In this document: piece by piece, positions 2,935-56,968 of the stretch | How positions within the stretch are numbered: the first letter of the stretch is position 1 | How the letters are laid out: each line of letters opens with the position of its first letter | Assembly: GCA_964016885.1 (NCBI GenBank) | Contig: OZ024743.1 | Location: 201,934,001 to 201,998,000, forward strand | Length of the DNA stretch: 64,000 bases | Source: Eledone cirrhosa | Taxonomy: Eukaryota | Direction of reading: 5' to 3' | The notes under the pieces: generated by a model | What the model was told of the DNA's origin: nothing | The model's input: only the letters and a program-made list of their open reading frames with translations | Databases searched by the model: none | Translations under genes and position numbers: made by a program

Positions 2935-3179
2935 ATAGAAAACATGAATGGAACAGCAGCATCACAACTTACAATTAAGGACAAAATGAAAACACACACG
3001 CACATAGAACAAACAACCAACCAGTAACATGTAAATAAACAAATAAATAAACAAACATAAACACACACACAGACACCCGGATGTAACACATGCGCAAAAT
3101 AAGCACACAACACACACAAAAACAAGATGGCGTAGAACAGAACAAAGGAGAGGCACAAAAACAAAGAAAAGAATCCCCA

Positions 3180-3222
3180 GTCACTGAAGAGGTTACAGAA
3201 TGTGTGACGAAAGAACTTTGAC
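3180..3222 (+). ncRNA. Minimal type I hammerhead ribozyme, family F2
   Basis: GTCA-CTGAAGA-G GTTACA GAATG TGTGAC-GAAA GAAC TT-TGAC. Confidence 0.8.
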
Positions 3223-3428
3223 AACATATAAACAATCATTTGGTTGTGGAACCAACTAACCAACCGGAAATTTATAAATTCCTAAATTTATAAATTTATT
3301 ATAATAAATTGAAGTGAAAGCACTGGTGCGTGTGTTTCTTATTGGCAACATGACCCTCCCAAAGTTAACAATATCGGTTTCAACACACGTTTTCAGATAA
3401 AGAATCTTGCTAAACAAATTCAGAAACG

Positions 3429-3475
<47 letters not shown>

Positions 3476-3482
<7 letters not shown>

Positions 3483-4837
3483 TATAAAGCTGACGGCCGT
3501 ACGTAGGTAACAAACTTTCCGCCAAACAGCTGGACAAAACAGCACCAAATTTGCACCAAAGATGTAACTTTTTCGAAGTAAAAAAGTGAGGGTATTTTTG
3601 TCTACAGAATTTTGTTAAAAGATTAAAGACATTATTTAAATATTCACTTCTTTAAAATTTCAAATGTCATCACTTCCGGTTATACGTCATTCCTCACTTT
3701 TTCTTATGACGTCGCACAACATTCCCCTTTTTTCTTAGTCTCTATGTCTGGCTGTCTGCATTAGATAGCGTTTTTCGAAATATTTACTTCTGCGTTCACA
3801 GACTGATTTGTTTTATTTTCAGAAGTTCCCGTTAAAGGTGGAAGCAGCGATTCTTTGCTTCAACTTTAATCTGTTATTTTAATATATATATTCGTCTACA
3901 GATGTTTTTGCATACACAAAAACAAAAATCTATTTATTTCACGAAAACACAGACAGCTTATCGTCATTCAGCTGTTCGAGTTTAGAGGACGACAGTCTTT
4001 CCAAGATCTGAGAACCACCAATGGCCATCAATGTTCCACTTACCGATTGGCTTGCCAGATGCGTGGTATGTTACACGATGACAGCCATTGGCACATCACC
4101 CTGCAAGAAGCAGCAACTGCTAAAGTACCTTCTCAGATGGGAAAACCTTTTGCTATTATCCTGCACAACTGCGATCTCGCCGACCCTCTCGCAATGTGGA
4201 ACAACCACCGCGAAAGTCTAGCTGAGGATATCCTCCACCGCACACGCAGACACAACCCGAACGTAACATACGATGTCGTTTTCTATGAAGCGCTCATTTG
4301 TCTTGAAAACAGTGTCCTGGAGATTGTTGGTAGGCCTCTAAGTCACTACAGCGTGCCTGCTCCTGACAGGAGTGTTCAGAGATCAACGTCTACATAGCTT
4401 CTCCGCGCGACTAGCTACGAAATCAGTGTTTCTCCCATGGTCAATTATATGTAGGATGCTATAGGGTTAGCTCGTCAAACAATCTCTTCATCTTTGCTCC
4501 GGAGGGCCGAACAAAAAATATTGTATATTCTGACGCTCTAACAATGTAATTTAAATATTTTCTGTTACTTGGAATATCCATTATGGTTGTACAATTTATT
4601 GTTTGTTAAAAATGTTGTTCTCTGTTCAGCCTTTATTGTTGTAACTATCAATTTTCTTTAACGTACTAGCTGCTGAACTGTGAAATGCTAAAAACTGTTC
4701 AAACCCAACATCAGAGCACGTTACCCCGCCCCCCGCCCCCTCTCTGACTTGAGAGGGCGTGCGGTATCTTTGCACTAGAGTGTAGGGGGGATACCTGTAA
4801 AGATAAAATGCCTGTAAACCTAGCCAGGCGCCAGCTA

Positions 4838-4838
<1 letters not shown>
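3476..4838 (+). mobile_element. Internally deleted Helitron carrying a RepHel fragment and an inserted F5 PLE end (3770-3885)
   Basis: Helitron-like 5' start TATACACTATAAAGCTG..CACCAAATTTGCAC; 3' GC-rich segment ending GCCAGGCGCCAGCTAG|T; internal RepHel homology. Confidence 0.75.
3980..4397 (+). pseudogene. Helitron RepHel fragment (region between Rep and Pif1-like helicase)
   Basis: RGRQSFQDLRTTNGHQCSTYRLACQMRGMLHDDSHWHITLQEAA..PSQM..FAIILHNC..DPLAMW..ESLAEDIL matches the recognisable RepHel linker pattern. Confidence 0.85.
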
Positions 4839-5523
<685 letters not shown>

Positions 5524-8521: not shown

Positions 8522-11500
8522 TTCCTTGAATCTCAGTCATTGATGTTGGTTAACTGGAAAGTCCGTTGGATTGAATATCAAGCCACTACCTGCAGCCTCA
8601 GATATTCAGGACGTATCGGAGGGTTCTTGCCGTTCCAAGCAAGCATGCCTTTTGAAGCGTTCCAAAAAGCGTGAAGGGGCCGATTTTCTTTAACCATCCC
8701 TGGAAACCTTTGGAGATAGTCCCCAGTGCGCCTATGACAATCGGGATCACTTTGACTTCATGGCAGTTCCAAATCCTTTTCACCTCCCACTTTAGGTCCT
8801 GGTATCGGTTAATTTTCTCCCTCTCCTTCTCTTGCACTCTCGTGTCGAACGGGCAGGCCACATCCACAATCAGGCACGATCTTTTTTCTTTGTCCACAAC
8901 CACCAGGTCAGGTCTATTGTGTTCCAGTTTTTTGTCCGTCTGTATCCTAAAATCCCACAGCACCTTCACCTGACTGTTCTCCATCACCGCCTCTGGCCTA
9001 TGCTCATACCATTTCTCAGAATGTGGTAGATTGTTTACTTTGCACAGGTGCCAGTGGATCACCCTGCCCATCACATCGTGTCTCCAGCCCTTATAGTGGG
9101 TCTGGGCTAGGTGTTTACACTCGGACACAATGTGAGCCACAGTCTCCTCTCTCTCTCCACAGATCCTGCACAGTGGGCTAGCCTCCTCCTTGTAGATATG
9201 GTGCTTCAACCACTTCGTTTTGAGGGCCTGCTCCTGCGCAGCCATTAGCATTCCTTCTGTAGCCTTTTTGAGGTCTCCTCTTCTCAACCAGTTCCATGTC
9301 TGTGGATCTCTAAATTCAGTTTTCTCAAAGAAGGTACTATGAAGGGATTTTCCCTTAAGGCTGCTCTTCCTCCTTGATGTTATTTCCTCCTTGGGTATCC
9401 CCTGGCCTACTCTCCCCTCCTTCAGTACAGCTCTGAGCATTGGCTCCTTACTATAGGTCACGTATTTGTATAGGTTGTTTTTCTCCATCTGAACACAGTC
9501 CTCTATGCTGATAAGACCTCTTCCACCCTCAGATCTCCTTAGGTAGAGTCTATCGACATCACTCCTCTTGTGGAACATGTTGTAGATAGTCAATAGCTTC
9601 CTAGTCTTCCTATCCATTTCTTTTTGTTCAGCAACATTCCATCTCAGAATTCCCGCACTGTACCTAATAATAGACACAGCTCGGGAATTTACTGCGCTTA
9701 TGGCATTTCTGCTGTTCAGATGTGACTTCAATACGCTCCTTACTCTCCGAATGTATTCAGTTCTTAACAATTCCTTCATTTTTTTGTTCTTTATGCCATC
9801 AGCCTCCAGAACGCCCAAATACTTGTATCCTTCCTCAGAGTCAATTTCCTTTATCATCTCACCTGTTGGTATCTGGATCCCGTTACTTCTGCTCAACCTA
9901 CCCCTCCTCATCACAATGACTCCACATTTACCAATACCAAACTGCATACATATATCACTGCTGAAAATACGGACAGTGTCAACAAGCACATCCAACTCCT
10001 TCTCACTTTTCCCGAAGAGCCTAAGATCGTCCATGAAGAGGAGGTGATTGATGGTAAGCTCTCCCCTTCCCAACTTGTATCCTGCTCTCACTTTTCGCAG
10101 CATAATGGTCAAGGGCATCAGGGCAAGGACAAACAACAGAGGGGACAGGCTATCTCCCTGGAAGATACCTCTCTTGATCTTCACGCTTCCCAAGGATACT
10201 CCAGTTGATGTCAACTCTGTCTCCCAGGACCCCATACTCCTGCCCAGCAACTCTCTGATGTTATCTGCCACCCTGAAGATCTCCAGGCTTTTGGTGATCC
10301 AGGAATGAGGCACCATGTCAAATGCCTTTCTGTAGTCTATCCATCCCATGGCAAGATCAGTGTGTCTCCTCCTGCAATTCCCCATTACCATCTTATCAAT
10401 AAGCAACTGGTCCTTTGTACCACGTGACTTCTTTCGGCATCCTTTCTGTTCGTCCGGCAACAAGTTGTTTGTGTGGAGGTGATGGTAGATTTCCTCAGAC
10501 ACAATGCTCGTCAACAGTTTCCACATTACGGGCAGACATGTGATAGGTCTATAGTTGGTAACATCATTACCCTTGATTCGGTCTTTCATTATCAGAACTG
10601 TGGTACCTTTTGTCAACCACTCTGGCACCTCACCCGACACCAAGCAGTCATTGAACATGGCCGTCAGCTTCGGGTGGAGGGATGTTAAATGTTTAATCCA
10701 ATACCCCTGCACACCATCTGGGCCTGGTGATTTCCAGTTGGTTAGTTTTTTGGCTTGCCCCTTAAGAGTTTCAACTGTGATACTCAAATCAGTCTGTTGC
10801 TGTGCCTGCTCACCGATCTCCCTCTGTACTGTCTCAATCCACCCTGCCTGGGCATTGTGTCTAACATCCTGCTCCCATATTCCTCTCCAGAATGTTTTAG
10901 CTTGTTCCGCCCCAGGGATCAAGTCGGTGCCTCTTTCTTTCCCCTCAAGCTGTCCAAACAGCATCTTCTGGTTGTTGTCGAACATGCGGTTCTGTTTATA
11001 CTGACTGACTCTGTTCTCGTATCGCCTGATTTTGGCACTCTTTGCTACAATGCGTTGCTTCAATTCCTCTATGATAATATTTAGCTTTTTACTCCTAGTT
11101 TTGTATTTTATTTCCAGTCTATTTTTAGTGCCTATGTTTTTTAGTGTCCCATTCAGTAGTGACTCAAGCTTTCCTATGTCATTTCTCATTTCCCCGATTT
11201 GCCCACTCAGTCGCTTCTTCCACCACGGCTCTGCTCTTTCTTGTCTGTTGTTTCCTCTCGCTTTTATACCAAGTAGTTTCCTCACCGTATTTGCTGTTGC
11301 TTTGAGGATATTGTTGCACTGGTGAAGACTCCTCGCCTCAAGGTATGGGATGACTTTGTTTACCTTAGCTGTTGTTTCTTTTAACTTTTTCCTGTCTACA
11401 AATCTTAGGTTCATAGGTCTCCCACTATCATTGTTCAACTCATCTACCACTAAATTTAGGATGTCAACCGAATCTTGTCCTAGCCCGTCAGCATTCATCT

Positions 11501-12332
11501 CCTCAGTGGCCGTATCTCTGTTCCAGGTATTATTTATCTCAGTATTCAGATCATTGTCTGCTTCGGGTGGTTCCTCCGCTCTCAGGACCTCCTCACCTTC
11601 ATTTCCCGCCGGCTCGCTTGTCTGGCATACTACACCCGCCATCTCCAAGCCATTCTCTCTGCTCAGTTCCTCCAGTTCCAGCTCGCTTATCCACCCATTA
11701 GTTCTTATTACCCGAGCCTGCCCGGCCAATTTTTGTTCATCTAATTTAAATAAACCAATCTCGTTCCAGATGTTATGCATCCGTCTCCTGTAGCCCCTCT
11801 CCTTGGGGTTACTTTTCAGGTAGCATTGCATAACAGTTCTATTCAATTCTTTCGTCCAGTTGGTTCTGGCCCCTTTCCTTCTTCTTCTTCCTCCAACATC
11901 AGCAGTATTTCGTTGACAGTCAGGTTCCTGCTGCTGAGCCAGGGGGCACCTGTTGGGTGAGAGTCTGTCACATGACGTTCTAGTCTCCATTTCACCGTTA
12001 TTCGAACTGTTTATGTTCGATATTTAAACACTCTTATCGAGGATTGGCGAATGTATGTTTACATAGCCATCTGTGGATCCGCCATCCCACTTGGCCCTTG
12101 TGTGGCATTATCACCACGCTGTATACGGACACACATAAACAAACAAACACACGGGCAGAAAGGGCCCCAAAAATGAATAAGCATAAGTTTCATTGTAATG
12201 TAGTATTCGAATGTCTGACTTAGTTTTTGTTTTTTAAGTTTTACTTTTTCCCCCCTCTTCTCTGTCCGTCCGCCTGCCTCTCTCTTCATTCTTATTTTCT
12301 TTACGTTTTGGGGGTTTCTTTTTTTGTTTTTG

Positions 12333-15208: not shown

Positions 15209-15258
<50 letters not shown>

Positions 15259-15268
15259 AACGAGTAGG

Positions 15269-15364
15269 ACCCCGACGGCTGAGCTCAAGCCGTTTAGACG
15301 GCTAATTCTGGACTAAATGAACATTTTTATCCTGGTATTTGAATAGCCGAGCTTCTCAAGGGGT
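15269..15364 (-). ncRNA. Hammerhead ribozyme, family F4, U3:A8 core variant (G12 mutated in this copy)
   Basis: ACCCC-TTGAGAA-GCTCGGCTATTC...GAATTAGCCGTC-TAAAC GGCT TGAGCTC AGCC GTC-GGGGT. Confidence 0.7.
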
Positions 15365-16199
15365 AATTCCATATATGGTCAAAGTGATTGTCACATGGAT
15401 TGGTCAAAAGTTTGTAGTTGAGACATAATAATTCTATGATGGCAATTAGTGGAGGGAAGGGGTAGCTAAACCTGCCACTAGGAGAAAGAGGGAGAGAGGG
15501 TGGAGGAGACCCATTCATGCGTTGATAGTGCCGGCTACAGTTGGGCGTGAGGTCAAAGAAGATACTAGGGAGGGGGAGGGAGAGGAAGTCGAACCAGTAA
15601 GTAGAACAATGAGGGGTAAATATATAGAAAAATACTGAGAGTGTTAAAAAGCAATTAAATGTAAAAAAAAAAAACAATTTCTGGTTACTACGACCTAAGT
15701 CTCTCACTATTGCTAGGCTAAAGAAATATACTAGGTGGGACGGAATTAAAATGAGAACCTTTTAAGAGGTATAAGTAAATATCCGAGTATATCTTACGGT
15801 GACGGGTCAACAAGTGAGGGGCCAAAATACTAAAGAGACTACCACGAAATAATAAAAGTTTCTACCCCAGGCACAAGGTCAGCAACCACCCAGTGCAAAA
15901 AAGTAAATTAATACGAAATAATAATTCAGAGACCCGAAAAAGAATACTAATACTATCTCTAAGGGTGCCGCCCACCTAGGGTGCGGCCCACCTAGTATAT
16001 TTCTTTACCCTAGCAATAGTGAGAGACTTAGGTCGTAGTAACCAGAAATTGTTTATTTTCTTTTACATTTAATTGCTTTTTAACACTCTCAGTATTTTTC
16101 TATATATTTACCCCTCATTGTTCTCCTTACTGTTTCGACTTCCTCCCCCTCCGGGTCCGTAAATAATTAATCAGCTTCTTCCGCGACTGGGGATTTAAA

Positions 16200-17210
16200 A
16201 TAACACTACAAACGTCCCTGACCCGAGTAAACTTCCTGGACGTTACCCTCGACCTCGATAATGACCTGTACTACCCATACAGGAAACCTAACGACAACCT
16301 GCACTACATCCACCGCCGATCAAACCATCCTAGGAACATCACCAATAACCTGGTTAAAAACATCTCCCTCCGCATATCCCGTTTGTCAGCTAATGAGCAG
16401 ATATTCGATGAACATGCGCCTTATTACAATCAGGCCCTCAAGCGGAGTGGTTTCCGGGAGGAAATATCCTACTGTCCAGCTCCCATTAGCGGAACCAGCA
16501 GGCGACACCGCTGCTCACGCAATGTAACATGGTTCAATCCTCCCCACAACGTCGAGGTGACAACTCCTATCGGGAAAATATTCTTTAGCCTTATTGTAAA
16601 ACAATTCCCACTACAACACTGCTACCACAAAATAATTAACAAAAATACCATCAAACTCTCTTACAGTACTACACCAAACTTTGCACAAAACATCGTCTCC
16701 TCCAACAACAAAAAACTCAACCCCGATAGAAGAAATAACCTAAATAGCAGTGGAGAGACGACCAGGAGGTGCAACTGTCCTGATGGATCCATTTTCCCCC
16801 TCGACAACAGATGCAGAGATCTTAATGTGATCTACCAGTGCAACGTGAGGACGGACACCTCCAACAAAGCTTATATAGGATTAACCGCATGTGACTTCAA
16901 GACCCGGCTATACCAACACAGACATACCTTCCGAAACCCGGCCCGGCGTCACGCCACTACACTTTCGGGCCGCATATGGGACCTCAAGGATAACAACATT
17001 ACCTATGATCTCACTTGGAGATTACTGTCCAGAGCCAACTCTTACACGGGAGGACGCCCTCCGTGCAATTTATGCTCGGAGGAGACTTTACAAATGCTGT
17101 TTTCGACGGACCAACTCCTAAACAAGAAAGATGAACGGGTTACTGCATGTAAACACTGATTGCATAGGACTTACCTCGCCGTCAAACCCCATAATGACGC
17201 GGGAGTGTAG
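16200..17210 (+). pseudogene. PLE RT thumb and GIY-YIG endonuclease fragment
   Basis: VNFLDVTLDL..PYRKPND..SNHP..WFNPP..NTIKLSYS..CNCP..VIYQCNV..AYIGLT..FKTRLYQH..TTLSGRIWDLK..CNLCSEE..CKH. Confidence 0.9.
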
Positions 17211-18303
17211 ACTAGGGCTATAACACCCCACTTGACGATTTTATAATGGGTAACCATTGCTTGCTAAGGGAGACGTAAGATCTTTTATATCTTTTTATCG
17301 CTTCCTCTATATTTCCTTCTTCTTCTTCCCTCCATCCCTCCCTAGTCCTTCCACCCCAGTTCTTTTTCTTTGTCGTCGTCTTTTCCTTGCCCACCCGAGG
17401 CAGCCCCTCGGTCCTTTGTAGCCTCACTACCCCCACCCTTCCCCTATTCTATGATAGATTTGGCCGACTCCGCTTTTTATAGCAGATGTGTTAGACCCCG
17501 GATACTTGCCCTCTTATCCGACCGCTGCCCCCTTTCCGTCTTTCTATATCTCCTAGTGCCATCTTTGCTTTAATTTCTCGTTTATCAGTATTTATTATTT
17601 TTTTTTAGGGGGGTGGGGGGGATTCTGAATTAATTTTCCGTATCAAATTTTACTTTTACTTCGTACAAGCTTTTATGTAGCACTAGAAATTTTGTATCGT
17701 GGCGGCACTCTTAGAGAGAGTATTAGTACTCTTTTTCGGGACTGAATTATTATTTCGTATTAGTTTACTTTTTTGCACTGGGTGGTTGCTGGCCTTGCGC
17801 CTGGGGTAGAAACTTTTATTATTTCGTGGTAGTCTCTTTAGTATTTTGGCCCCTCACTTGTTGAACCGTCACCGTAAGATATACACGGTTTATTTACTTA
17901 TACCTCTTAAAAGGGTCTCATTTTAATTCCGTCCCACCTAGTATATTTCTTTAGCCTAGCAATAGTGAGAGACTGAGGTCGTAGTAACCAGAAATTGTTT
18001 ATTTTTTTAACATTTAATTGGTTTTTAACACTCAGTATTTATCTATATATTTACCCCTCATTGTTCTACTTACTGTTTCAACTTCCTCCCCCTCCTCCTC
18101 CCTAGTATCTTCTTTGACCTCACGCCCAGCTGTAGCCGGCACTATCAACGCATGAATGGGTCTCCTCCACTCCCTCTCCCTCTTTCTCCTACTGGCAGGT
18201 TTAGCTACCCCTTCCCTCCACTAATTGCCATCATAGAATTATTGTCTCAACTACAAACTTTTGACCAATCCCTGTGACAATCACTTTGACCATATATGGA
18301 ATT

Positions 18304-18399
18304 ATCCCTTGAGAAGCTCGGCTATTCAAATACCAGGATAAAAATGTTCATTTAGTCCAGAATTAGCCGTCTAAACGGCTTGAGCTCAGCCGTCGGGGT
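18304..18399 (+). ncRNA. Hammerhead ribozyme, family F4, U3:A8 core variant (G12 mutated in this copy)
   Basis: ATCCC-TTGAGAA-GCTCGGCTATTC...GAATTAGCCGTC-TAAAC GGCT TGAGCTC AGCC GTC-GGGGT. Truncated copies at ~49124 and ~52203 read CGAAAC. Confidence 0.7.
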
Positions 18400-18406
18400 C
18401 CTACTC

Positions 18407-18453
<47 letters not shown>

Positions 18454-19462: not shown

Positions 19463-19655
19463 ATAACGAAGGAAATGTGGTAAGGAACCGGTGGACCATA
19501 ACGCACCAGAGTACTTAATACTTAGGGTAGTAGAGTAGGTAATAGGAAAGAGTAGGATCCCGACGGCTGAGCTCAAGCCGTTACGACGGCTAATTCTGGA
19601 TATGCGAATTAGCCGTTGAAAAGGCCTGAGCTCAGCCGTCGGGCTCCTACCTGTT

Positions 19656-19660
<5 letters not shown>
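19463..19660. mobile_element. Miniature F4 two-armed insertion (~55 bp arms plus ~80 bp tail)
   Basis: ATAGGAAAGAGTAGGATCCCGACGGCTGAGCTC... / ...GAGCTCAGCCGTCGGGCTCCTACCTGTTCCTAT; tail ends ATAACGAAGG in (TA)n. Confidence 0.85.
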
Positions 19661-19708
<48 letters not shown>

Positions 19709-19927: not shown

Positions 19928-19972
19928 AAGTAAAGGATTATGAGTTCATGCAATTGACTTGTTTCGTCACTA

Positions 19973-20004
<32 letters not shown>

Positions 20005-20008
<4 letters not shown>

Positions 20009-20132
20009 AACGAGTAGGACCCCGACGGCTGAGCTCAACCCATTTCGACGGCTAATTCTGGACTAAATCTAAAGTATTGTGTACTTTGGTACGTTATGGT
20101 CCACCTGGTTCCTTACCACATTTCCTTCGTTA
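20005..20132. mobile_element. Miniature F4 insertion: inverted pLTR end joined to tail fragment
   Basis: 20005-20068 matches 15256-15318; 20070-20132 matches the F4 tail ending TTCCTTCGTTATA. Confidence 0.8.
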
Positions 20133-20375: not shown

Positions 20376-20419
<44 letters not shown>

Positions 20420-20420
20420 T

Positions 20421-21941
20421 TATTAAAATAACAGATTAAAGTTTAAGCAAAGAATCGCTGCTTTCACCCTTAACGGGATCTTCTGAAACTAACAAAGTCA
20501 ATCTGTAAACGCAGAACAGGATATTTCAAAAAACGTTGCAACCGGAGGAAGACAGGAAGACGATACTTTGGTTTGTGGAAACGTTCGCTGGCAAAGAACG
20601 GGAAAAACGAATAATACGTCATTAATAGGAGCGGTGAAAAGCAATTACGCGCAAAGACAGAACCGCGTTTATGGTATAAAAGAGGTCGTAGACTAATGTT
20701 CTCTTAGGTGGTGCATAGAGACATTCTCTGGCAATGAACGAAAACACGAAGATAATACGTCATATGTGGAGCGTGGAGAACAATAGCACGCAAAGACAAA
20801 ACCACGTAAATGGTATAGCAGAAGTCGTAGACTAAAATCCTAACTAGGAAACCAAATGAATCTCCACTACAGAGTTAAGAACAAAGTAAATAAATACAAT
20901 ACAGAAGTAATAGAAATAAATAAATACATACATGCAAACGAATACGTACATACACAAGCATACGCAAAACCTTACCATAGGTATACAGAACCACGCACAT
21001 ATAAATATGTGTGTGTGTGTATGCGTGTATACAAATAAATAAATAATTATATAAACGTATATAAATAAATAAACACGTATATAACAAGCGCACATACATA
21101 CCTACATATAAATACACGAATGTTCGGAGACGTAAGTCAACTAAAACAAGAAGTACACATATACACGCACCCACCATACGTACGAACCTGCATACTCACA
21201 CAGACGCGAAACTCCCGTATACACATAGCCAAACCCTATGTACCAGGATATATAAAATTATACGCCATAACAATCAAATATAGGTGCGAGAAGTTATACG
21301 TACCTTCACAAAACATACGGGTAATATATACCTACCTATGCAAATAAGTAAAGGAATAAATAAAACATATAGTTAGCTCCCACATCAAGACGTGAAATAT
21401 CCACGTATAGATCGTACTATCCGTTAGGGTATAACGTGCGGCTGTAATACAGGAAAGTTTTGTGCAATTTATGTTTACAAGCCGAAATTGCCTCAGATTT
21501 TTTGTTTAAGATGTGGTCTGTGGCGTAGAGTATTTCCAGGGCCTCAGCGGCGCAGAGGTCACATAGTCTTTTATTTCCGTTATACGATCTAGCCCTAGCT
21601 AGGATCTCCCAGTGTAACTTATATTGGGTGTGGTTGTCTTTTAGACTCCAGATATAACCTGAAAGTGACGTCATATTCCTTCTTAGAGGGTAACGAAAAG
21701 AATGGGTATGCATGTAAAGACGCTGCTTGAAACTATTGGCGGTTAACCCTATGTAGGCCCTACGGGACGTGGGTGTTACAACCTTACATTTGTAGACAAT
21801 GTTACTAGAGAGGCATTTCCCGGATAGGGGCAATCAGCCCGATTCCTACAATTACAGTTAGTACTAACTACAGGGTTGCACGTGTTCCTACGGCTAGGTA
21901 GTTTAGCTAAATTTGAAGCTATGATGTTATGTGCAAGGTTA
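20421..21941 (-). mobile_element. 5'-truncated Naiad-type PLE, family F5 (GIY-YIG 21417-21941, 3' UTR/pLTR)
   Basis: CNC..CPLSGKCLSSNIVYKCKV..AYIGLTANSFKQRLYMH..CDLCAAE..CKH; homologous to 54000-54890 and 56346-56925. Confidence 0.9.
20431..20506 (-). ncRNA. Hammerhead-like motif, family F5, U4A core (CAGAAGA)
   Basis: ACAGATTGA..AGTTT-CAGAAGA-TCCC GTTAA GGGT-GAAA GCAG CGATTCT TTGC TT-AAACT.TTAATCTGT. Confidence 0.7.
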
Positions 21942-25388: not shown

Positions 25389-28300
25389 TTACAGACACAT
25401 ACTCAGAGAAGGCCCATTCATTCGGGCCATACTTGCTTCTCTCACCCATCTCTCAACAAAATGCTGGGAAGAGAGCACTTCCCTCTGTACCCTGATTTTC
25501 CTTTTCAAATGGAATTTGAAAAAAATAATTAGGGCATCACCGAAGAGGTTAGTGCTCGTCTTCAGCCCTTTCAAACGTGTCCACCATACTATCTCTTTCG
25601 CCATGGCCACCAGACAGATAAAAACTGCCTGCCCTTCCCGGCTAAAGGAAGAGGGCGGGGCAATCCTCACGATGGACTTAGCTGATAGCTGGATTCGTCC
25701 TACACGTGACAGCAGGTGTTCGACATAAACCCACAAGTCAGCAATGCTCGGACACTGGACGAGTGCGTGCAGGACCTTTTCGTCGCCCTGCGCGCATCTC
25801 GGACATGCCCGGCTGACGGCACCTCCGTGCCTGTAGAGTTTATCCCGAACTGGCAAAGCTCCCCTGTAGCACTGCCAGGCCAGGGATTTCTGGAAGTTGT
25901 CCATAGGCCCCGGCCCGAAAGTTCTTCCGAAGAGATTGGCTAGTTGATTTTCGTCGACGCCTAGAGTTTCTCCAAGTACGTCGTCGCTCTTCCCCCCCCC
26001 CCACTAAACCTCTATAAAACGCCAAGGTGGAGTTTCCACCGATCACATTGCCCGATTGGTTGAGGGCTGTGAGCGCCTGAAGACATTCCAGTCTCCAAGC
26101 GCTCCCACTCGGTCTTCGCTTGACCCAGGACTGCAGCTCCCTCAAGGAGACGAGCTGGGGAAAAATGTGTCTAGCAAACGACGACCACACCTGATCATCG
26201 TCGAGGAAGAGGTGGAGATGTCGTAGCATGAGCGCGTGTCTGCGCATCATCAGCCACGGCATGCCCAGCCCTCCATGTAGCGGGTGTTGACAGCAGATGG
26301 ACCGCCTGACCATCGGAGCGCGTCCCTTCCACAAGAAGCGAAAGAGCAAACGCTCCAGCGCAGTCAGGCGAGGCTTAGGACAAGGTACGACGGTCAGGCG
26401 GTAGTAGATGACGGACGCGATGTACGCGTTAGCCACCTCCGCTCGACCTTTCAGGGATAGTTTCCTCTCCGCCCATTTCTGGGTGAGAGAAGCCACCCTG
26501 CTCGTCACCTCGTCCCAGTTTTTGTCCGTCTGGAGGTCCGGACCGAACCAGACCCCTAGCAATTTAACCGGTCCGTCCGTCCAGCATCCGACGACGCTGT
26601 TGGACGGCATGGACCTGCCTCTCCAGGTGCCGAGCTGCAGGCCCACTGACTTTTCCTGGTTGATCATTGCTCCTGTCACCGCTTCGTATTCTCGTAGTGT
26701 AGTGCCGATCGCCTCGATGTGTTTGGCGTTCGACACCACTACGGTGACATCGTCCGCATATGCTGACACGGATCTTCCGCATCCTAGTTCGCGCGGGACG
26801 CGCCTCAACGTCTCCAGTTTGTGCAGTAATGGCTCGAGAGTCAATACGTACAAGAGGGACGAGAGGGGACATCCTTGCCAGACCGAGCGCATGATGTTGA
26901 ACGATTCCGACAGGTGACCGTTCACTCTCACCACAGAGCAGATGTCGCTGTGCATGGCAGCGATCCAGCCTCTGAAGACGGGCCCAAAGCCAGCCGCCTT
27001 CAGGACTGCCGCTAGGTAACGATGGTCGACCCTATCGAAAGCTTTCGACTGATATAAATTGATCAAGGACCCACCCGTGCCAGGTTCCTTAGCTACCCTC
27101 TCTACGATGTATCGCATGAGGTGGAGGTTGTCGTGGATGGATCTGTCGGGAATGGCGCATGTCTGCGCCTCTCCCACCAGACCACCAACGACAAGCGCGA
27201 ATCTCTTTGCTAGCACCTTGGCCAAAATCTTGAACTCTGTGTTTAGAAGAGTTATGGGCCGGAAATTATCTATGTTATCCCCCTTGTTCGGATCCTTTTT
27301 CAGCAGTGCCACCGCTCCTCGGCTCACAGAACTGGGAATTCTCCCGTTCTGTTTCCAGTTGCAGTAGACGTCCGCAAAGAGGCCTCCGAACAGGTCTGGC
27401 ATCTGTACGTAAAGTTCATAGGGCAGACCATCCAAACCAGGCGATTTACCCCTTGTGAAGCCAGTCATTGCCTCCCTTACTTCAGCGGCTGTTATCGGCT
27501 TTTCGCAACACCTCGCCTCAGTGGCCGAGAGCCGCGGCAGTCCGTCGAAGTAGACACTAAAGACCATCCCTCGACCCGGCCCACCGCTGCCCCCGAACAG
27601 CTGAGCGAATTGTCGCTGAAAAGTTTCACACATTTGCCCGGGATCGAGTAGCATGCGCCCGTCGTGGTCCACCAAAGACCGGATCGTGGCTTTGTTGTCA
27701 CGACGCGCCTCCGCCACTCGGGCCCATTGAACGGCTTTCGTCCCCTCGTGTCTGAGAGCACGCACCCTCGCTCTGACAACGCAGCCTTCGTGCTTTGCAT
27801 TGAAGAATTGGTCAAGGGCCAATTTCGCCGCAAGCACGTCGGTCGCAATGCCTTTGCTAAGCGCCTCGTCTAATTTTCTAACTAGTTCTCCCTCTGCTCT
27901 ATTTTTCTCTATTGCTAAAGCCTTACTAAACCTAATGGATTCTATTCTAATCGCTCTTTTCAGAGCAAACCACCACTTGTTGTTGACGATGGCCCCCGTC
28001 AACGCCCGCTTAACTAGTTCGCTAATCCGGTCTCTGTAGGCCTTGCGCGCTGGTAAGGACGCGTTTAGCTTCCAGTAGCCGGGTCCTCGTCTAAGAAGCC
28101 TATCTAATTCAAGCACACAGATCACGAATTTGTGGTCCGTGTAGCTGACTATCTTGAATTGTGGACAGCCTATTCTAGACCTATCTATTTCCCTACAAAA
28201 TACTCTATCTAGATATGATCTGGATGACCCTATGCGATTTGTCCAAGTCCACATTAGCACATTCGGGAAATCCAATCGGTACCTGTCAGACAGTTAAAAA

Positions 28301-28811
28301 CGCCTGAGCAGGTTGGTGAGGCTCTTGCACCCTCCCACCCTATCCGCTAATCCCACACTGTCCCAGCGTGCATCTAAGATCCCGTTCCAGTCGCCCACTA
28401 ACACTAAAGAGCAGGACGTTCCAAGAAAGGTCTCCAGACGCCGGAAGAAATCAGGCCGCCCGGCTCCTGTCGGGCCGTAGACGGCCACTAGCCTCAAAGC
28501 TTGCCCGTCTCCGCTGGTCACGTCCAGCACCACCAGCTTACCCTCTGGGTCCAGGAAGATGGCCCGTATGGCGAGATCCAAACCTCTCCGAAAAAGCACA
28601 GCAACTCCTCCCCCCGATCCAGGACGGCTGGGAGATGCGTACACATCGTAGCCGCCAAAGTCGGTGCGAAGGCCCGTGCTTCGGAGATTCTGGTCTCGCT
28701 GATGGCCACTACATCTATGTTTAGTGACCTGAGGTCGTTGAGCAGGTGACCCTGCTTCCATGACGACCCCAAGCCACGCGCATTTATGCTGCCTATTCTG
28801 AGTGAGGTCAT
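25389..28811 (-). pseudogene. Tx1/L1 ORF2: apurinic endonuclease, reverse transcriptase, C-terminal Cys/His finger; about 3 frameshifts
   Basis: IGSINARGL, ISET, LVGDWN, SYLDRVF, TDHK, GPGYWKLN, KSPGLDGLP, FRPITLLN, QGCPLS, AYADDVT, CPRC..HALVQC, split over four ORFs. Confidence 0.93.
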
Positions 28812-28846
28812 GTTTAAAATAGAGTGGAAAAGATGGGAAAGACCAC

Positions 28847-30956
28847 TTACCGTACTTTTGGTAGAGGAGGGATGGTTTTTACATCCCTTTTCACTTGATC
28901 GTCTGGTGAAGGGACCGTTGAATCGTCCCTTCGGCTGGTCGTCGGCTCTTCTAAGAGAATGTCTGAATATACTCTTCGATTGATAGTTCCTCCTAGGTCC
29001 CTGAAATCACCAACTGCGTTGGGGAATTTCGTTTTAATGTTTGTGTATTGTTTCTGTGCTATTTTTAGCAGTCTTATGTTAGTTGGCGTTTTGATTGGTG
29101 CTGGTATTATGTAGTCGTGTTGTGAAATGTCTGTGTGTTTAATTATGTAAGTCATTAGTTTCTTGTTGTGTGTATTTATTGCCGTGCATTTGTTTTTCTG
29201 GGGGTGGGGTGTGGTTCTGCTATTTTCTTGTCGTTGTTGCTGGGTGTGTGTGTTTTGTTGTTGTGTTTGCGATGTTGGTGCTTGTGGTGGTGGTGTTGAA
29301 GGTGTTGTTGGCGGTGGGGTTGTCGCCGGTGGTGATGGTGGTGCTAGTGTGGGTGGTGATGGTGTTGGTGGTATTGCTGCTGTGGGTCTCTTTGCAGTAG
29401 ACTTTACCCTTTTCTCATTTCTTTCCTCCCTTTTCAAAGGCGACGATGCGCTGCTTCTGCGTTTGTGCCTTCTTACGACCTTTTGCCATCTCTCTCCCAC
29501 CTCACACTCCATGTCTGATTCTGTGAGGTCGGGGAGGGGTACCAGCTCCACTCTTTCACTTGTTATTGTTGGTGATGTTTGCACTGGAGTCTCTGTTGCA
29601 GCTGCATTTGGTATTGCTGTTGTTGTTAATATTTCCACTGCTGCTGCTGTTTTTGATTTCCGTGGAGTGGGTATGGGTGCCACGGACCTATCGTTCCTGG
29701 TTGCCGCTCGTCCTGTTGCTGGTAGCCGTGGAGCCGGTTTCGGAAGGAGGGGGGTTTTCTCCTTTCTCAGGGTCTTCTCGTTGCAGAAGGCCCTGAGGTG
29801 AGTCTTCGATCCACAGCGAAAGCATTTCGGGCATTTTCCCTCAACACTTATGGGCAGTTGAGTGCCGTTATCGAAGTCTATCACATCCGGGATTGCTTCG
29901 ATGCACTCCTGGTTGGTTTGGATTAGCATCTCAATGGAGGTGCCGACCCAATCTTCTCTTACTTTTTTCTGTACTTGCAGTACAGTTGTTTTGTCCTCGA
30001 TTCCGACGAGGACAGACGCGGCCAGCCAAGAAGGGGCCATCCGGGGGGGGGGGGGGGGGACGTGGGTCAGTTTGACCCTCACAATTATTTTGCCCGCAGT
30101 AGGAGGGCACCAACACCATTTCCTCGCTCCTTAGGGTCACTACGGATTGGGCCTTTGCCTCCTGGGGTGTGGCAAAAAGTACGTCTACGGTGGCATATTT
30201 TTTGCCTCGGGTGATGTGCGTTTTCCGCTGCCACACAGACCCCAAGGCTCTTTGTATTTGAGCCTCTGTGGCTCTTTCCACCCTACGGGATTTTGTACTT
30301 ACTGTACGGTACGTGACCGTACAGTGCTGTTGGGTTTCGAAAAATTTTTCCGCTGCCTTGCAGATTGCTCGGTGTCCAGTCTTTGTCACCATCTTCTTCG
30401 CTTCCTCTAATTCCTCATTTGTTATGAGGATTGTTTCCAAGTTTTTCGCAATACCTGCAAATGAGATTGGTTTTTCTTTGCTGCTGTTGTTGTTGTTGTC
30501 GTCAGAGCTGCTGTTACTTTTGTTGTTGCTGCAGGTACTACGACTACTGCCTCCGCCGCTGTTGCTGTGGTTGTTGTTGGTGTTGCTGCTGCTCATGCTG
30601 TTGTTGTTTATGCTGCTGGTGATGCTGTTGCGGCTGTTACTGTTGTTTTCATTGTCACTGTTGCTGTTGTTATTACGGCTGCTACTGCTATTATTCCTGA
30701 AGTCAGACGAATGAACTGGGTTTTCGTATTTCCCGCACACCTGTTTCGTCGCTGTCGTCGTTGTCGTGGAGAAACCTTGCACGCTTTGCACGAGACTTTT
30801 CTTTTCTTTCGTCGTTTGCGAAAGAGAAGGGAGGTAGAGAGACACATTTAAAGAAGGGAGGGAGAGAGACAATCTTCTCTCTGCTGTAGTGATGATTGAG
30901 GAAGAAGAAGACGGAATGAGAGGGAGTGACCTATGAAATTTCTTTTTCGTAGCCAT
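28847..30956 (-). pseudogene. Tx1 ORF1 (gag-like) with zinc knuckle; frameshift at or near the G-run ~30043-30059
   Basis: Asn/Ser-rich N terminus, ISFAGIAK motif, CFRCGSKTHLRAFC (CX2CX4HX4C), WQKVVRR, Pro/Thr-rich tail; lies directly upstream of ORF2. Confidence 0.85.
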
Positions 30957-33129
30957 GTTGTTTTTTTTTGTTTAAAATAAATATTGGGTACAAAACCCCA
31001 ATAAGCAGTTATTTAACCCCGAAGGGCCAAATAACGGGCAGAAAGACCCCTCTCACGAGGAGGAGGGTGTTTTTGTCTACAAGTTCGTTAAAGTTTTAAA
31101 CAATTTACAATTGTTATAGTGTTCAAAATTTACAATACCTTACAGAGCCGAGCCTCCGTCAACCATAGCATTCAATAATAATAATAATAATAATAATAAG
31201 AAGAAGAAGAACGTATTAAATCTATTATTTTTGAATAAGCGAAAGCTGTTTTGAGATATGTATGGCATCAGTTCAATTCTCACAGCCCTTCTTTATCTTC
31301 AGAAATGTCTCGTAGATAAAGCACATTGAGATTTGTGTCAATAAAAGAAAATATTGCAATCGTTTTAGTGTAAAATGTCATAAATATGCATTATTAACAA
31401 AGTCTGGTGTGGATATGTAAGTCAAAATAATGTAAATATTGCAATTGAAATACTCACGCACACACACGCACGTGCACACACACACTCACATGCACACATA
31501 CCCTCTCCATATATATAGAATATCTCTCCCTCAAATGTTTATATTTCATTGATATAGTTAATTTCCACTCAGATATAGCATATCATCTATAACGAGTAAC
31601 GGGAATGCTTCTACATGGTTGCTTAATCTACTAGGACGGCCAAACATATCTTCTTCAAAGCACATCCATTATTGCCTTATGACAGTGGAAACATTGGATA
31701 ACATAGATCGTGATATACTAAAATAATAGTCTATTTATCTTCAGAAAACAAAGAGAGAATGAGGGAATAAACCTGACTGCAACGCTTTTGGTCGTATACT
31801 TCCTACCCAGGGTTAATTTGGAGCTAAATCAACAACAATACTAGTTATACAGATACAACGAGGTAGCATCTACATGGTTGCTAGCAATAGTAGCCACATC
31901 CCTCTATTGTCTCTAATATTGAGGGATATACTAGATAAGTGTCTCCCAGATGCAATATTGCTGAAAAGAAAATACAAAACACTGGATCGTCATCGCTGAA
32001 ATCTTTTGGTGAAACGTCAGCTCAGTAAGGTTTGATTTGGGTCTAACTAAGAACAAAAACAACAAAAAACCGTTAGTAGTAAAATTCCTACCTAGTAGAT
32101 AATGAAAACCACGTACACATTGAATGCACTCTACAAAAACCTTGTTTAGAATAAATCAAATGCTAGTTAATAACAGATATACAAATAATTTAGTAGATCC
32201 AGAAAAAATTCAAAACATAACTATAGCCGACAACACCGAATGAAAACCAAATACACTTTAGTTATTTAACAATGCAACACAACATGCATTGCATCCAATT
32301 ATAAACTTGTATCAATAATATATTACAAATCACAGATATTAAAATCGCTTCATTAAGAGCAGCCCACACTCCTGCGAACCTGCATACCGTTGAATAAACT
32401 TTAAACGGCAAATAAAATTGAGAAAATCGATTGTAAACATGGACAATGTAAACAATTATGATTCTAGCTTTACACGTTATAGATTTATATATTTATATAT
32501 TTATTCCTGTTTACTTTATATACTAATTTCTGAAGAATAGCATCGTTGGTTTTCGATTGGACCTCCATCAGTTTCGACGATATGTTCTCAAGTTCTTCGG
32601 TCAATGGAACAACGTATTCGTTAAATGAAAATATTTCACAGACACATGTGTACCCATAAAGATGAGAGAGATGCAGAATATCACATTGTGAAACAAGGCT
32701 GATTCTTTGAAATATTGGAACGACTCATCAAACAGATGTCCAAACAACGTATTTCAGACTGCGGAAACAATTCTGAAATGCACAAGAGAAAAAGTACAAT
32801 TGAACGATTGCTATTGTTATTGTTTAGCTTTAGATTCAACTTTGTTTGGCTAGTCTAATGATTAAACATACCAGCTATGAACATAGTGTCGGTTTATTTC
32901 AGATGTCGTGATTCTAGGACTATAATTCTGCAACGTCTCCTTCCTCAAATATAGAGTGCGTTGTGAGGGAGATGTGTCTGCTTTTCTAGAGGATTGGATG
33001 ACTGAATAGTATTCCCCTCGTTACAACAAGAAAATACTTATACCCACTGCAACTACAGTTATCTCACCGGAGAAAGAACGCCAATGTCTTGAAATTAACT
33101 TTGTATAAAATACTAGTATTATTTTTATT

Positions 33130-37677: not shown

Positions 37678-37683
37678 TATATT

Positions 37684-37743
37684 AGTTTCAGAAGATCCCG
37701 TTAAGGGTGAAAGCAGCGATTCTTTGCTTAAACTTTAATCTGT
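37684..37743 (+). ncRNA. Isolated F5 hammerhead-like motif (U4A), ~75 bp insertion in (TA)n
   Basis: AGTTT-CAGAAGA-TCCC GTTAA GGGT-GAAA GCAGCGATTCTTTGC TT-AAACT. Confidence 0.7.
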
Positions 37744-38059
37744 TATTTTAATAAATATATATATATATATATAATATATATATATATATATAAATGTAAA
37801 CGGAAAAAATGAAGCGAAATTTCATTTCCCACTCTTAGTACGGCTGTTACTTAAATATAAGTATGTACACGTACATACATATATGCATACAGACGTACAG
37901 TAGTATGTACATATATATACATGCACACATATATATATGCACGTATGGATTCACCGAACATTTATTATAATGCTCGGTGTGTTTGTAAACAAACATCCCG
38001 TATTAAGCCGTAGTGTCTAGCAACCACCGTTCCTCGTTTGTTCAACACTGACAAAGGAA

Positions 38060-48293: not shown

Positions 48294-48414
48294 TCTCGCA
48301 TGCTCCGAAGATCTGACTGGTTATAATTTTGTATTGGCCATCGAGTAACGTGAAAATAAGCGAATAGCGATCTCTAGACCTACCAGTTCAGAGAAACAAT
48401 TGTCAACTATGAGA
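48294..48414 (+). ncRNA. Hammerhead-like motif, family F9, inverted-arm copy
   Basis: Same fold as 44937-45057 with one stem I mismatch (AAC for AGC). Confidence 0.65.
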
Positions 48415-51373: not shown

Positions 51374-52155
<782 letters not shown>

Positions 52156-52478: not shown

Positions 52479-54894
52479 CTTCTATCGAATTTACGAACTA
52501 TTAAATCAGTTTAAGCACACATCATATTACGTGTTGGCTCACTATAAACCACCTTAGTACGCATGAATCGATTTGCTTTGATTAGATACGGCTTTTTAAT
52601 AAAATCATTGCAGCAATTTCTGTGAGGTTTCCTAAACTCTTTTGAAGATTTCTTATCACTTCCGGCTTCTTCTCTTATTCACAAAAAATAATGGCTTCTT
52701 GCTTCGGATCCTGGTTTTGTAGAGAATTTTGCCCGAACATGATTCTTTAAATTATAATTTTCCTTTTAACTTAATTCAACTCATTAAAACAGTGTTGTTA
52801 AAGTGTTTGTATAAAATGGCTTAGTATTAACTCCGGCTCTCTGCGTTCCGAGTTCAAATCACGCGGAGATCAACTTTACCTTTCATCTTTTCATGGACGA
52901 TAAATAAATTACTACTTCAGAAGTGGTTGCGAAATTGTTAAAATGCGGATAGAATGCCGGATTATGTCATTAGTTGCGACATACAGATACCATCCACAAT
53001 GGAAAGACCAATAAAAACTTAGTTTCCATGGTCCCATCTAACGATTGACTGATTCACTATTTTTCAGAAAAAAAATCATTTTATATACTCTTTCAATGCT
53101 TGTATCATTAATTCACATTTGAACGGGTCTCTGTAAGAATAAACAGAACTTTTGTGCACATACACGCTTGCAAGTATTGAAAAAGAATATATATATATAT
53201 ATATAGTAATAATAATCAATTTGAAGACTAAAAGCCAAAGAGAGCTCTATAAGGATAAATATATATCAAATATATAAGAACCCTAGAGCAAATATTTATT
53301 AAAATGACAGAATAAAGTTTAAGCAAAGAATCGCTGCTTTCACCTTTAACGGGATATTCTGAACCTAAAAAAATCAATCTGTGAACGCAGAAGTAAATAT
53401 TTCGAAAAACGTTGCAACCGAAGGAAAACAGGAAGACAGTACTTTGGTTTGTAAAGACGTTCCCTGGCAATGAACGGAAAAAAGCGAAGATAATACGTCA
53501 TTATGTGTATCGTTAAGAACAATTACACACAAAGACAAAACCACGTTTATGGTATAAATGAAGTCGTAAACTAATATTCTATTAAGGAAACCGAGTGATT
53601 CTCTGGCTTCAGAGTTAAGAATAATGTAAATAAATTAGTAGAACTAAAGTGACAGAGGTTGTTGAAATCAACAGCATAACCAAGAACCTGGTACGAAACG
53701 TTTCCTTGAGGCTCTCCAGTCTATCTACAAACGAGCATATTTTCACCGACCATTCCACATACTACAATGAAACTCTTGCTCGGAGTGGATTTGTCGATAA
53801 GGTAGCGTATACTAACGTTGAGCATAGACCTAGGAAAAATAGATCCCGACGCATTATATGGTATAACCCACCATATAATATGGAGGTGGCCACAGCATTA
53901 GCTCAGATATTCTCTCCCTTATTAAGAAGCATTTCCATTCAGCACATACATATAATAACATTTTAAATAGAAATACCATTAAAATATCTCACTCCATGAC
54001 TCCTAACCTTGCACATAACATCACTGCTTCAAATTTATCTAAATTAGCTAGCCGTAGGAACACATGCAGCCCGGTAGCTAGTACTAACTGTAATTGTAGA
54101 ATCGAATTGACTGCCCTCTATCCGAAAAATGCATCTCCAGTAACATTGTCTACAAATGTAAGGCCGAAACACCCACGTCCCGTAGTGCCTACATAGGGTT
54201 AACCGCCAATAGATTCAAGCAGCGTCTTTACATGCACACCCATTCTTTTCTTGACCCTTTAAGAAGGAATATGACGTCACTTTCAGCTTATATCTGGAGT
54301 CTAAAAGACAACCATACACAATATACACTGGGAGATCCTAGCTAAAGCTAGATCGTATAACGGAAATAATAGACCATGAGATCTTTGCGCTGCTGAAGAT
54401 CTGGAAATACTCTACGCCAATGACCACATCTTGAACAAAACATCGGAGGCAATTTCGCCTTGTAAACATAAATTGCATACAACTTTCCTGTATTACAACC
54501 CCACGTTATACGCTAACGGATAGTACGAACAATACCGGATAATTTACGTCTTGATGTGGTAACTAGTATATTTTATGTTTATACCATTACTTATTTATAT
54601 AGGTGAGTATACCTTACCCGTATCTTTTGTGAAGATACGTATACTTTCTCGTACGTATATTTGCTTGTATTTGTTATAGGTGTATATATCATACTATAAA
54701 TACTGGTACATGTGTATATGGTTATGTGTATATGCGTTGTTTTTGTGTTTGGTATGTGTATATGAGTACTTTGTATTTTAGTTGACGGACGTTTAGTGAA
54801 CATATGTGTATTACTTGTAGCTGTGTGTGTGTGTGTTTGTGGGTGCCTTATATGCGTATTTATGTGTGTATATTTATCTACGTTTATATAATTA

Positions 54895-55755
54895 CTAGAA
54901 GAATGGCCCGGCGTTGCTGGGGATTTGCTCTAGGGTTCTTATATATTTGATATATATTTATCCTTATCGAGCCTCGTGAAATAAATACGTTCGTTTATAT
55001 TTTGTTATTGTGTATGTAAACATATTTCTCCATGAATATATAATTATATATATATATTAAAATAACAGATTAAAATTTAAGCAAAGAATCATTGCTTTCA
55101 CACTTAACGGGATCTTCTGAAACTAAAAAAATCAATCTGTGAACGCAGAAAATGAATCGCTGCTTTCACTCTTAACGGGATATTCTACCTAAAAGCAGTA
55201 TGAAGTACACTAAGACTAACTGATGTAATCTTTGGCCTTGTTTGTTTATATTTTGTTTGTGTGTATGCAAAAACATATGTACACGAATATCTATATTAAA
55301 ATAACATATTAATGTTTCAGCAAAGAATCGCTGCTTTCAACCTTAATGGGATCTTCTTAAACTAAAAAATCAATCTGGAAAACAGGAAGACGATACTTTG
55401 GTTCGTGAAGACGTTCTCTGGCATAAGAATATATATACACACACACACACTGATCGCGTCATAATGACGTAATGTAGACAGTCAGGCATACAGACAGATA
55501 TTATGAAGGCGCGACGTCATATCTATGTATCTATCTAAAAAGAGAAAGACTAAGAAAAAGAGAAAGAGATCGCTAAATCGCCTAATGCGATCCCTAGGGC
55601 ATTGCAAATTTGAATCTTTTTTGCTTAGAACACTCAATAGGACCATAAGTATTACATGTGTAAAGTTTGAAAAAAAACGGTTGGGTAGTTCTCGAGTTTT
55701 AGGGAAACAGACAGACAGACAGACAGACAGACATCCTCTGTTTTATATATATAGA
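54895..55755 (-). mobile_element. Non-autonomous Helitron A containing F5 PLE pieces
   Basis: Minus 5' TCTATATATATAAAACAGAGGATGTCTGTCTGTC; 3' CCCAGCAACGCCGGGCCATTCTTCTAG|T; the same 5' end occurs as a fragment at ~20325-20385. Confidence 0.82.
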
Positions 55756-56346: not shown

Positions 56347-56840
56347 TATGTATACACACACACGAACACATATATTTTTTATGTGTATTTGGTGTATACG
56401 TTCGTATGTGTGCGGGTACAGGTGTCGCACGGGTTTATGTATGTATGCGCATGTTTATGTGTCCATGCATGCTTATGCATGCATTGCGGGTGTGTTCCGT
56501 TTGCATGTGTATGTACGTATATGGACGCGTGTATGTATATATTTTATTATTGTTGATTTCAATAACCTCTGTCATTTTCGTTCTACTAATTTTTTTACAT
56601 TATTCTTAACTCTGAAGCCGAGAATCACTCGGTTTCCTTAATAGAATATTAGTCTACGACTTCATTTATACCATAAACGTGGTTTTGTCTTTGCATGTAA
56701 TTGTTCTTAACGCTCCACATAATGACGTATTATCTTCGCTTTTTTCCGTTCATTACCAGGGAACTTCTTTACGAACCAATGTACTGTCTTCCTGTTTTCC
56801 TTCGGTTGCAACGTTTTTCGAAATATTTACTTCTGCATTC

Positions 56841-56916
56841 ACAAATTGATTATTTTAGTTTCAGAAGATCCCGTTAGGAGCGAAAGCAGCGATTCGTTGC
56901 TTAAACTTTAATCTGT
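56841..56916 (+). ncRNA. F5 hammerhead-like motif (U4A)
   Basis: AGTTT-CAGAAGA-TCC CGTTA GGA GC-GAAA GCAGC GATTC GTTGC TT-AAACT. Confidence 0.65.
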
Positions 56917-56918
56917 TA

Positions 56919-56968
<50 letters not shown>

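Follow-up and report, generated by a model that had tools for sequence, protein, structure and literature searches.

A fixed adenosine at position 4 of the hammerhead core in a Hydra-type Penelope-like element family of Eledone cirrhosa

The hammerheads in the pseudo-LTRs (pLTRs) of Penelope-like elements (PLEs) are reported to have low activity in vitro, and the available text of that account names a single core variant, U3-A8 (Cervera and De la Pena 2014, PMC4209133). Within the PLEs, the Hydra clade is described as having a DKT motif, a CxCX5C linker, a C-terminal endonuclease and (TA)n targets (Craig et al., 10.1101/2021.04.23.441226). Natural departures from the hammerhead core have been collected elsewhere, among them a U4C change that makes cleavage much slower and yet suffices in a viroid, and a U-U closing pair of stem II (Perreault et al. 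2011, PMC3088659). In a pairwise-mutant scan, the single mutants of the CUGA turn are all described as low in activity, with no rescue except by the C3-G8 swap (PMC9901934). In a PLE of Anolis, the hammerhead is reported to cleave only when the element protein is present, hammerhead mutants had no effect on insertion in vitro, and none of the RNA reads terminated at the site (Frangieh et al. 2024, PMC11167929). Non-LTR retrozymes, non-coding tandem units that each bear a type I hammerhead, reportedly cleave themselves and form circles (PMC7229834; 10.64898/2026.07.22.740005). Hammerheads in PLE pLTRs and rare core variants are known already. A family in which A is fixed at position 4 appears to be new: text searches of the literature turned up no earlier account of a natural A4 (U4A) hammerhead, and four A4 core words are absent from the text of 11 supplement files of PMC3088659.

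The family considered here, F5, was met in a 64,000-nt window of contig OZ024743.1 (the whole stretch of DNA that was analysed, in whose positions coordinates are given unless a locus is named). By its sequence features F5 is a Hydra-clade PLE. It has a single ORF with reverse transcriptase (RT) and C-terminal endonuclease (L070:3623 and other copies), DKT in place of DKG and the CxCX5C linker can be read directly in its translations, and it shares with the clade (TA)n insertion, a pLTR, tandem and inverted structure and a hammerhead in the pLTR. Homologues of the ORF number 567 (best 57% identity), and a Pfam search with it returned no domain at E 0.1; consequently, the GIY-YIG label rests on the motif reading and the description by Craig et al. 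The placement is by features, the tree being composed of this genome's families and metagenome relatives without named Hydra reference families, and membership of the Naiads was rejected given that the endonuclease is C-terminal. The whole layout is present in locus L070 (hammerhead, 5' UTR, ORF from 3623, 3' UTR, hammerhead, (TA)n), where the two hammerheads are spaced 3259 bp apart. F5 copies are 5'-truncated to varying extents and end in (TA)n either 26 or about 115 nt past the predicted cut, and new copies are reverse-transcribed through the hammerhead from start points at these same two distances downstream of it. Elsewhere in the window lie the long ORFs of two other non-LTR retrotransposons, 8598-12023(-) and 25840-30971(-), namely a 1141 aa RT ORF and an endonuclease-RT element with upstream ORFs.

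Table 1. Parts of the F5 hammerhead, its host element, other F5 copies, and hammerheads of other families (window positions unless a locus is named).
Feature	Position	Strand	Basis or remark
5'-truncated F5 Hydra-type PLE copy: ORF end, ~0.95-kb 3' UTR, 3' pLTR with hammerhead, terminal (TA)n	20419..21941	-	1452 bp upstream of motif common to other genomic copies; matches 54004-54894
C-terminal GIY-YIG-type endonuclease end of RT-endonuclease ORF, including end of CxCX5C linker	21417..21833	-	ORF list; same protein end in L063, L068-L075
Distal stem I, 5' arm	20498..20506	-	9 bp with 20431-20439; pair probability 0.996 (folding ensemble)
U-rich bulge of stem I	20491..20497	-	subfamily variants at L070:3414 and 3418
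Proximal stem I, 5' arm	20486..20490	-	5 bp with 20440-20444; aligned to model stem I; predicted pair probability 0.05
Core C3 A4 G5 A6 A7 G8 A9	20479..20485	-	A at position 4 (20484)
Stem II: U10.1-U11.1 mismatch, three C-G pairs, 5-nt loop	20466..20478	-	sequence
G12 A13 A14 A15.1	20462..20465	-	core numbering
Stem III: 4 bp, basal G15.2-C16.2, one G-U, 7-nt loop	20447..20461	-	pair probability 0.34-0.45
U16.1 U17 and predicted cleavage site (20445/20444)	20444..20446	-	hammerhead consensus homology
3' arms, proximal and distal stem I	20431..20444	-	core numbering
Short F5 end, complete core, without distal stem I 5' arm	37682..37753	+	sequence; model match
F5 hammerhead copy, A4	55055..55145	-	sequence
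Older F5 copy, A4, private stem II and III changes	56838..56926	+	sequence
Decayed F5 copy, CAGAA kept	3793..3884	+	sequence
Decayed F5 copy, CAGAA kept	53297..53387	-	sequence
Decayed seventh F5 copy, C3 lost, A4 kept	55294..55381	-	sequence
F5 sister family	hammerhead about 18300-18450, ORF 16167-17159; L320	+	U3-A8 core, long loop II, 5-bp stem III, palindrome in its loop
F5 sister family, short ends	15214-15318, 19540-19700, 19971-20068, 52120-52290		
L310-type C4 family	44945-45053(-), 48298-48405(+); ORF 45825-47840(-)	both	very long stem II insert, palindromic stem III, GUC
L308 C4 element, intact	L308:2567 and 6766, ORF 2819-5315	+	unit about 4.2 kb
Canonical-core hammerheads, other PLE families	3184+, 14137-, 14375+, 19877+, 23547+, 38095-, 38519-, 39098-, 43740-, 51672-	both	

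The F5 hammerhead, of type I, sits on the minus strand at 20431-20506, inside the 3' pLTR, with C3 at 20485, A4 at 20484, G12 at 20465 and U17 at 20445; by homology to the hammerhead consensus, the cut is predicted between 20445 and 20444. Around the core, in what is a minor predicted conformer, stand three stems (5+9, 3 and 4 bp), open at stem I. Set against the type I consensus (C3 U4 G5 A6 N7 G8 A9, G12 A13 A14, A15.1-U16.1, H17), the motif departs from it at U4 only, and given that U4 is replaced by A in 18,366 of 18,547 matches it is a core variant and not a canonical member of the class. A sequence-only reading of the window had described stem II as CCC/GGG, followed by GAAA, a stem III of GCAG/TTGC, a CUU triplet and a bipartite stem I, all of which were confirmed; it had passed over the U10.1-U11.1 mismatch that closes stem II. 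By comparison with hammerhead structures, the U-rich bulge of stem I is the predicted partner of loop II, and together with the A-ending loop II it would be compatible with a tertiary contact between stems I and II.

That reading was also right that four copies carry CAGAAGA (C3 at 20485-, 37689+, 55119- and 56862+) and that CAGAA is retained in degenerate copies at 3798 and 53317; the seventh, decayed copy had been missed. Its description of F5 as the most abundant PLE end is true of the window, with seven F5 copies, but finds no support genome-wide in 56 evenly spaced 10-kb loci, where the descriptor introduced below matched F5 three times and three other clusters 12, 11 and 10 times. A stretch of about 140 bp from the F5 end, containing the hammerhead, lies inside another small non-coding repeat (55010-55790; L076, L077, L078), which has its own flanks and has itself multiplied. 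The F5 end also adjoins a shared fragment at 3793-4397, and likewise at L084:7200-7852, whose translation resembles what we take to be part of a Helitron helicase gene.

The proposal that the variant is fixed in the family held up against the genome. The exact 30-mer with A4 has 18,366 matches in 3.0 Gb, the same 30-mer with C, G or T has 181 (99.0% A), and the reversed-pattern control has none genome-wide; in copies not selected on ribozyme sequence, position 4 is A in 85 of 86 letters, some of the loci overlapping. Among the first 100 of the 181 exceptions listed, the letters are G 38, T 37 and C 25, a spread consistent with sporadic mutation rather than with a U4 subfamily. A looser U4 pattern does find 1147 genome matches, and a U4 ancestor or subfamily of F5 was nevertheless rejected, since 18 of 20 inspected U4-looking copies proved to be fold-back junctions, where an inverted copy attaches on or close to a palindrome centred on position 4, without the 5' half of stem I. 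Such junctions, with position 4 at the centre and false canonical cores as the result, occupy about 1100 genome sites (examples L198-L217) and are consistent with the joining of two inverted cDNAs at a short palindrome. Among the rows listed for contigs of four sequencing runs there is no position-4 variant in F5; two contigs that begin at the predicted cut were discounted, their start being 30 letters ahead of a branch point, which is what an assembly graph would produce. Six of the genome's Hydra-type families fall together in one group (support 91, FastTree; three own-genome rows partial), and the sister of F5 within it, the family at 16167-18450, has a hammerhead with the U3-A8 swap that keeps U4, so that A4 probably originated on the F5 branch itself, from which it would have been carried along by the master element.

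Whether so altered a motif still belongs with the hammerheads of its clade was approached through relatives. When 77 metagenome loci encoding relatives, several of them near-duplicates, were searched by a descriptor with position 4 left free, a hammerhead was found in 51, and in the best matches position 4 was U in 50, C in one and A in none. A covariance model trained on 25 of the relatives' U4 hammerheads recovers F5 at 20436-20494 (E 0.026) and 37680-37738 (E 0.021), the E-values being rough, and ranks these two copies 4th and 5th of its 13 window matches, above several motifs with a canonical core; among the alignments listed, the same model found seven further metagenome loci with CUGA. 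Features of F5 that look odd are mostly normal here: in the 51 related hammerheads, stem II is closed by U-U in 22, A7 is present in 13 and U17 (GUU) in 7. G stands at 16.2 in all 51 best matches, whereas the basal pair of F5 is swapped (G15.2-C16.2) and still paired, and this swap and A4 are the only features unusual for the clade. The predicted fold is less favourable, the catalytic fold lying 2.1 kcal/mol above the minimum, in a calculation that leaves tertiary contacts and proteins outside, and the motif folding no better than shuffles (z -0.33). Other core departures occur singly among the Hydra-type hammerheads of the metagenome loci, at L266:2569-2627 and L273:1627-1688 (an extra base after A6; GUAA for GAAA). 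The window itself holds at least ten canonical-core hammerheads of other PLE families, none of which reaches the Rfam threshold.

Within the genome, F5 is not alone, as non-U4 cores recur in three other families. Two further Hydra families, each with an intact ORF, have fixed C4, those of L308 (2878 pattern matches; C in 99 of 100 listed) and L310 (792 matches; C in 100 of 100 listed), and a related motif with C4 and U7 occurs at L061:9576. The third is a second A4 family, found in a randomly placed locus, L319:1795-1905(-), and also in L347-L366, with 355 pattern matches (89 A, 10 C and 1 T among 100 listed). Its core is otherwise canonical (G10.1-C11.1, GUC, an 8-bp stem I), its minimum-energy fold is the hammerhead (z -3.24), and it has no evident sequence in common with F5 outside the core. 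The unit is non-coding, about 500 bp long with (TA)n ends; two cores lie in tandem 473-538 bp apart in six of eight chosen loci, and no ORF of its own was found in 21 loci. One of its subfamilies has C4 in 12 and A4 in 11 of 23, so that both states, and not U4, have been propagated. Two of its subfamilies, represented by four and two units, differ at 37 of 468 columns; the core, stem I and the basal part of stem II are free of differences, and the two in stem III preserve pairing by turning A-U into G-U. A7 is shared by both A4 families and both abundant C4 families. The descriptor required all other core letters, and families with other core losses would be missed by it; L066, considered as such a family, is an old single copy with G5 and A9 changed, and was rejected because its pattern has one genome match. 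We infer that position 4 is the one core position under relaxed constraint in the Hydra-type elements of this genome.

Signs of selection on the hammerhead fold are suggested, weakly, by the distribution of variants. Shared non-CpG variants of F5 (6% or more) fall on one of 56 paired or core sites and on seven of 55 unique upstream sites (Fisher p 0.03, the classes having been set after inspection). Such conservation tests are weak in general, in that the site classes are post hoc, the 3' end is likely to be a protein-recognition signal as well, and the search patterns fixed part of the motif. Covariation of the stems within F5 gave no compensatory pair and no pair changed on both sides, and a G to C variant in stem III at L070:3453 (7 of 113) breaks the wobble. 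Across the clade, 10 of 12 pairs covary in the 25 relatives, which the descriptor had preselected for pairing. The stem III of the 56841 copy, put forward as improved, turned out to be a private variant, and its candidacy as covariation was rejected, the changes in stems II and III both being private: the stem II variant pattern has seven genome matches, with GAGCG in this copy only. As a possible trace of cleavage, a peak of 5' junctions at the predicted cut was sought. Among 70 F5 copies that include the 5' UTR (70 of 525 matches, all on contig C1), 46 read through the upstream hammerhead, 23 begin downstream and one begins at the cut; for a Hydra family with canonical U4 (30 of 47 matches) the corresponding counts, on our reading of the junctions, are 21, 8 and 1. 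With no peak in either family (1/70 and 1/30), the trace is non-discriminating, and the similarity of the two implies templates that were uncut or circular in both and says nothing on A4.

Our preferred interpretation, held with moderate confidence, is that the F5 hammerhead would be a slow, probably protein-assisted ribozyme and not a dead one. In mechanistic terms, A4 would weaken the uridine turn and slow the ribozyme, with the consequence that most F5 transcripts would persist uncut for a time sufficient to act as templates. Slow cutting might be harmless or even useful, since reverse transcription starts downstream of the cut in the same RNA. A minority of transcripts would cleave at CUU, probably only with the element protein or a host factor present to stabilise the catalytic fold, and this residual cleavage may trim or circularise unit-length RNA. 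The match to a U4-only model, the Hydra context, the exceptional status of position 4 alone, the recurrence of non-U4 cores, the sparing of paired and core sites by the variants of F5 and of the second A4 family, and the precedents of the viroid U4C and the Anolis element argue for such an interpretation, and read-through copying in F5 agrees with what is reported of the Anolis PLE (PMC11167929). Against it stand the position of the catalytic fold above the minimum, the 0.05 of proximal stem I, the z of -0.33, the lack of a compensatory pair in F5, the low activity described for CUGA mutants (PMC9901934) and the proliferation of Naiads without a hammerhead. The sequence-only reading had offered an active variant or a deliberately slow ribozyme; the general proposal is plausible and gains support from the non-U4 cores of three other families, but none of the results points to selection for slowness, and the reading did not consider that the motif might be dead or dispensable and owe its fixation to a founder copy.

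That last option, in which A4 was neutral in the master copy, spread by founder effect, and the fold is kept only as a 3'-end signal for the RT-endonuclease, is rather unlikely in our judgement but is the likeliest of the alternatives: catalytic mutants did not affect insertion of the Anolis PLE in vitro (PMC11167929), Naiad PLEs proliferate without any hammerhead, CUGA mutants are poor ribozymes (PMC9901934), the predicted fold is weak, and 46 of 70 F5 copies read through the hammerhead where one begins at the cut. However, the canonical U4 family gives the same junctions, A4 and C4 were both propagated in one subfamily, and four families changed position 4 while the other core letters were kept, when random decay would be expected to strike other positions too (with the caveat of ascertainment, as the descriptor fixed those letters). 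The opposite extreme, a fully active core compensated by its context through A7 or the contact between stem I bulge and loop II, seems improbable. It would fit the success of F5 with its 18,366 matches, the presence of A7 in both A4 and both abundant C4 families as against 13 of 51 relatives, and the layout of the tandem A4 element, which is that of self-cleaving, circularising non-LTR retrozymes; but A4 is absent from all 51 related metagenome hammerheads and from the seven more in the model alignments listed, the C4 and U7 of L061 show that the link to A7 is not strict, and the mutant scan is described as finding no second-site rescue (PMC9901934). That AT-rich DNA resembles a hammerhead here by chance, finally, is hardly credible and is largely refuted by position and model match. 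In its favour, no hammerhead was found by Rfam in the window at the gathering score, nor in seven loci at E up to 10, and the folding z is -0.33; but the canonical hammerheads of L254 and L228, included as controls, were missed as well, so that the failure of Rfam on F5 is uninformative. Further, the motif occupies the same place in the pLTR as the canonical hammerheads of sister families, a model built independently of F5 finds it, and the descriptor gave one match in three rounds of shuffling over the 77 loci and one on the antisense strands.

It is a tentative thought, and one we do not press, that Hydra-type elements of this genome have repeatedly adjusted position 4 (from U to C to A) to set the cleavage rate, and that CAGAAGA could be a working natural core, possibly switched on by the element's own protein, serving in the processing of an autonomous retroelement and of a retrozyme-like circle alike. 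The implications differ with the outcome. Should A4 cleave, a letter regarded as invariant is not invariant, and hammerhead searches undercount by copies in the tens of thousands within a single genome; if CAGAAGA works, standard CUGANGA searches miss a whole class. If A4 does not cleave, a family of more than 18,000 copies has spread with no need of catalysis. Why PLEs keep hammerheads at all is a question, since insertion proceeds in vitro without cleavage and yet almost all of these elements carry the motif. This genome provides a natural series within one clade (U4, U3-A8, C4 twice, A4 twice, and A4 with C4 in one subfamily), and a comparison of rates across that series would put the retention question directly to the test.

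In relation to described systems, F5 resembles the type I hammerheads that PLEs carry in their pLTRs, as characterised by Cervera and De la Pena (2014, PMC4209133), with which, as there described, it shares the pLTR position, the type I topology and massive numbers of dispersed, truncated copies; it differs in having a real 4-bp stem III where theirs is minimal or palindromic, U-U where theirs is G10.1-C11.1, and A4. The Hydra clade as portrayed by Craig et al. (10.1101/2021.04.23.441226) likewise has DKT, CxCX5C, (TA)n, a pLTR hammerhead and tandem and inverted insertions with a tail, although the F5 unit of 3259 bp is slightly longer than the '<3 kb' given for the clade, and the available text of that account describes no core variants. 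The second A4 family finds its closest counterpart in the non-LTR retrozymes (PMC7229834; 10.64898/2026.07.22.740005), which in the available descriptions are also non-coding, low-GC tandem units with one type I hammerhead each; it stands apart in its length (about 500 bp against about 170-400 nt), its A4/C4 core and its Hydra-type (TA)n ends. Like F5, the Poseidon PLE of Anolis (Frangieh et al. 2024, PMC11167929) is reported to have two internal reverse-transcription starts downstream of the hammerhead, with copying through the uncut motif, but it has a canonical core, belongs to a different clade, and has had its protein-dependent cleavage demonstrated, where for F5 such dependence is presumed. 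The natural core variants of Perreault et al. (2011, PMC3088659) offer the nearest parallel for the core itself, in that a single position departs while the rest is kept, a U-U closing pair is found, and an activity that is reduced but sufficient sets a precedent for F5. Unlike those variants, among which U4A is not named in the available text, the change in F5 is fixed in a family of more than 18,000 copies and recurs in a second family.
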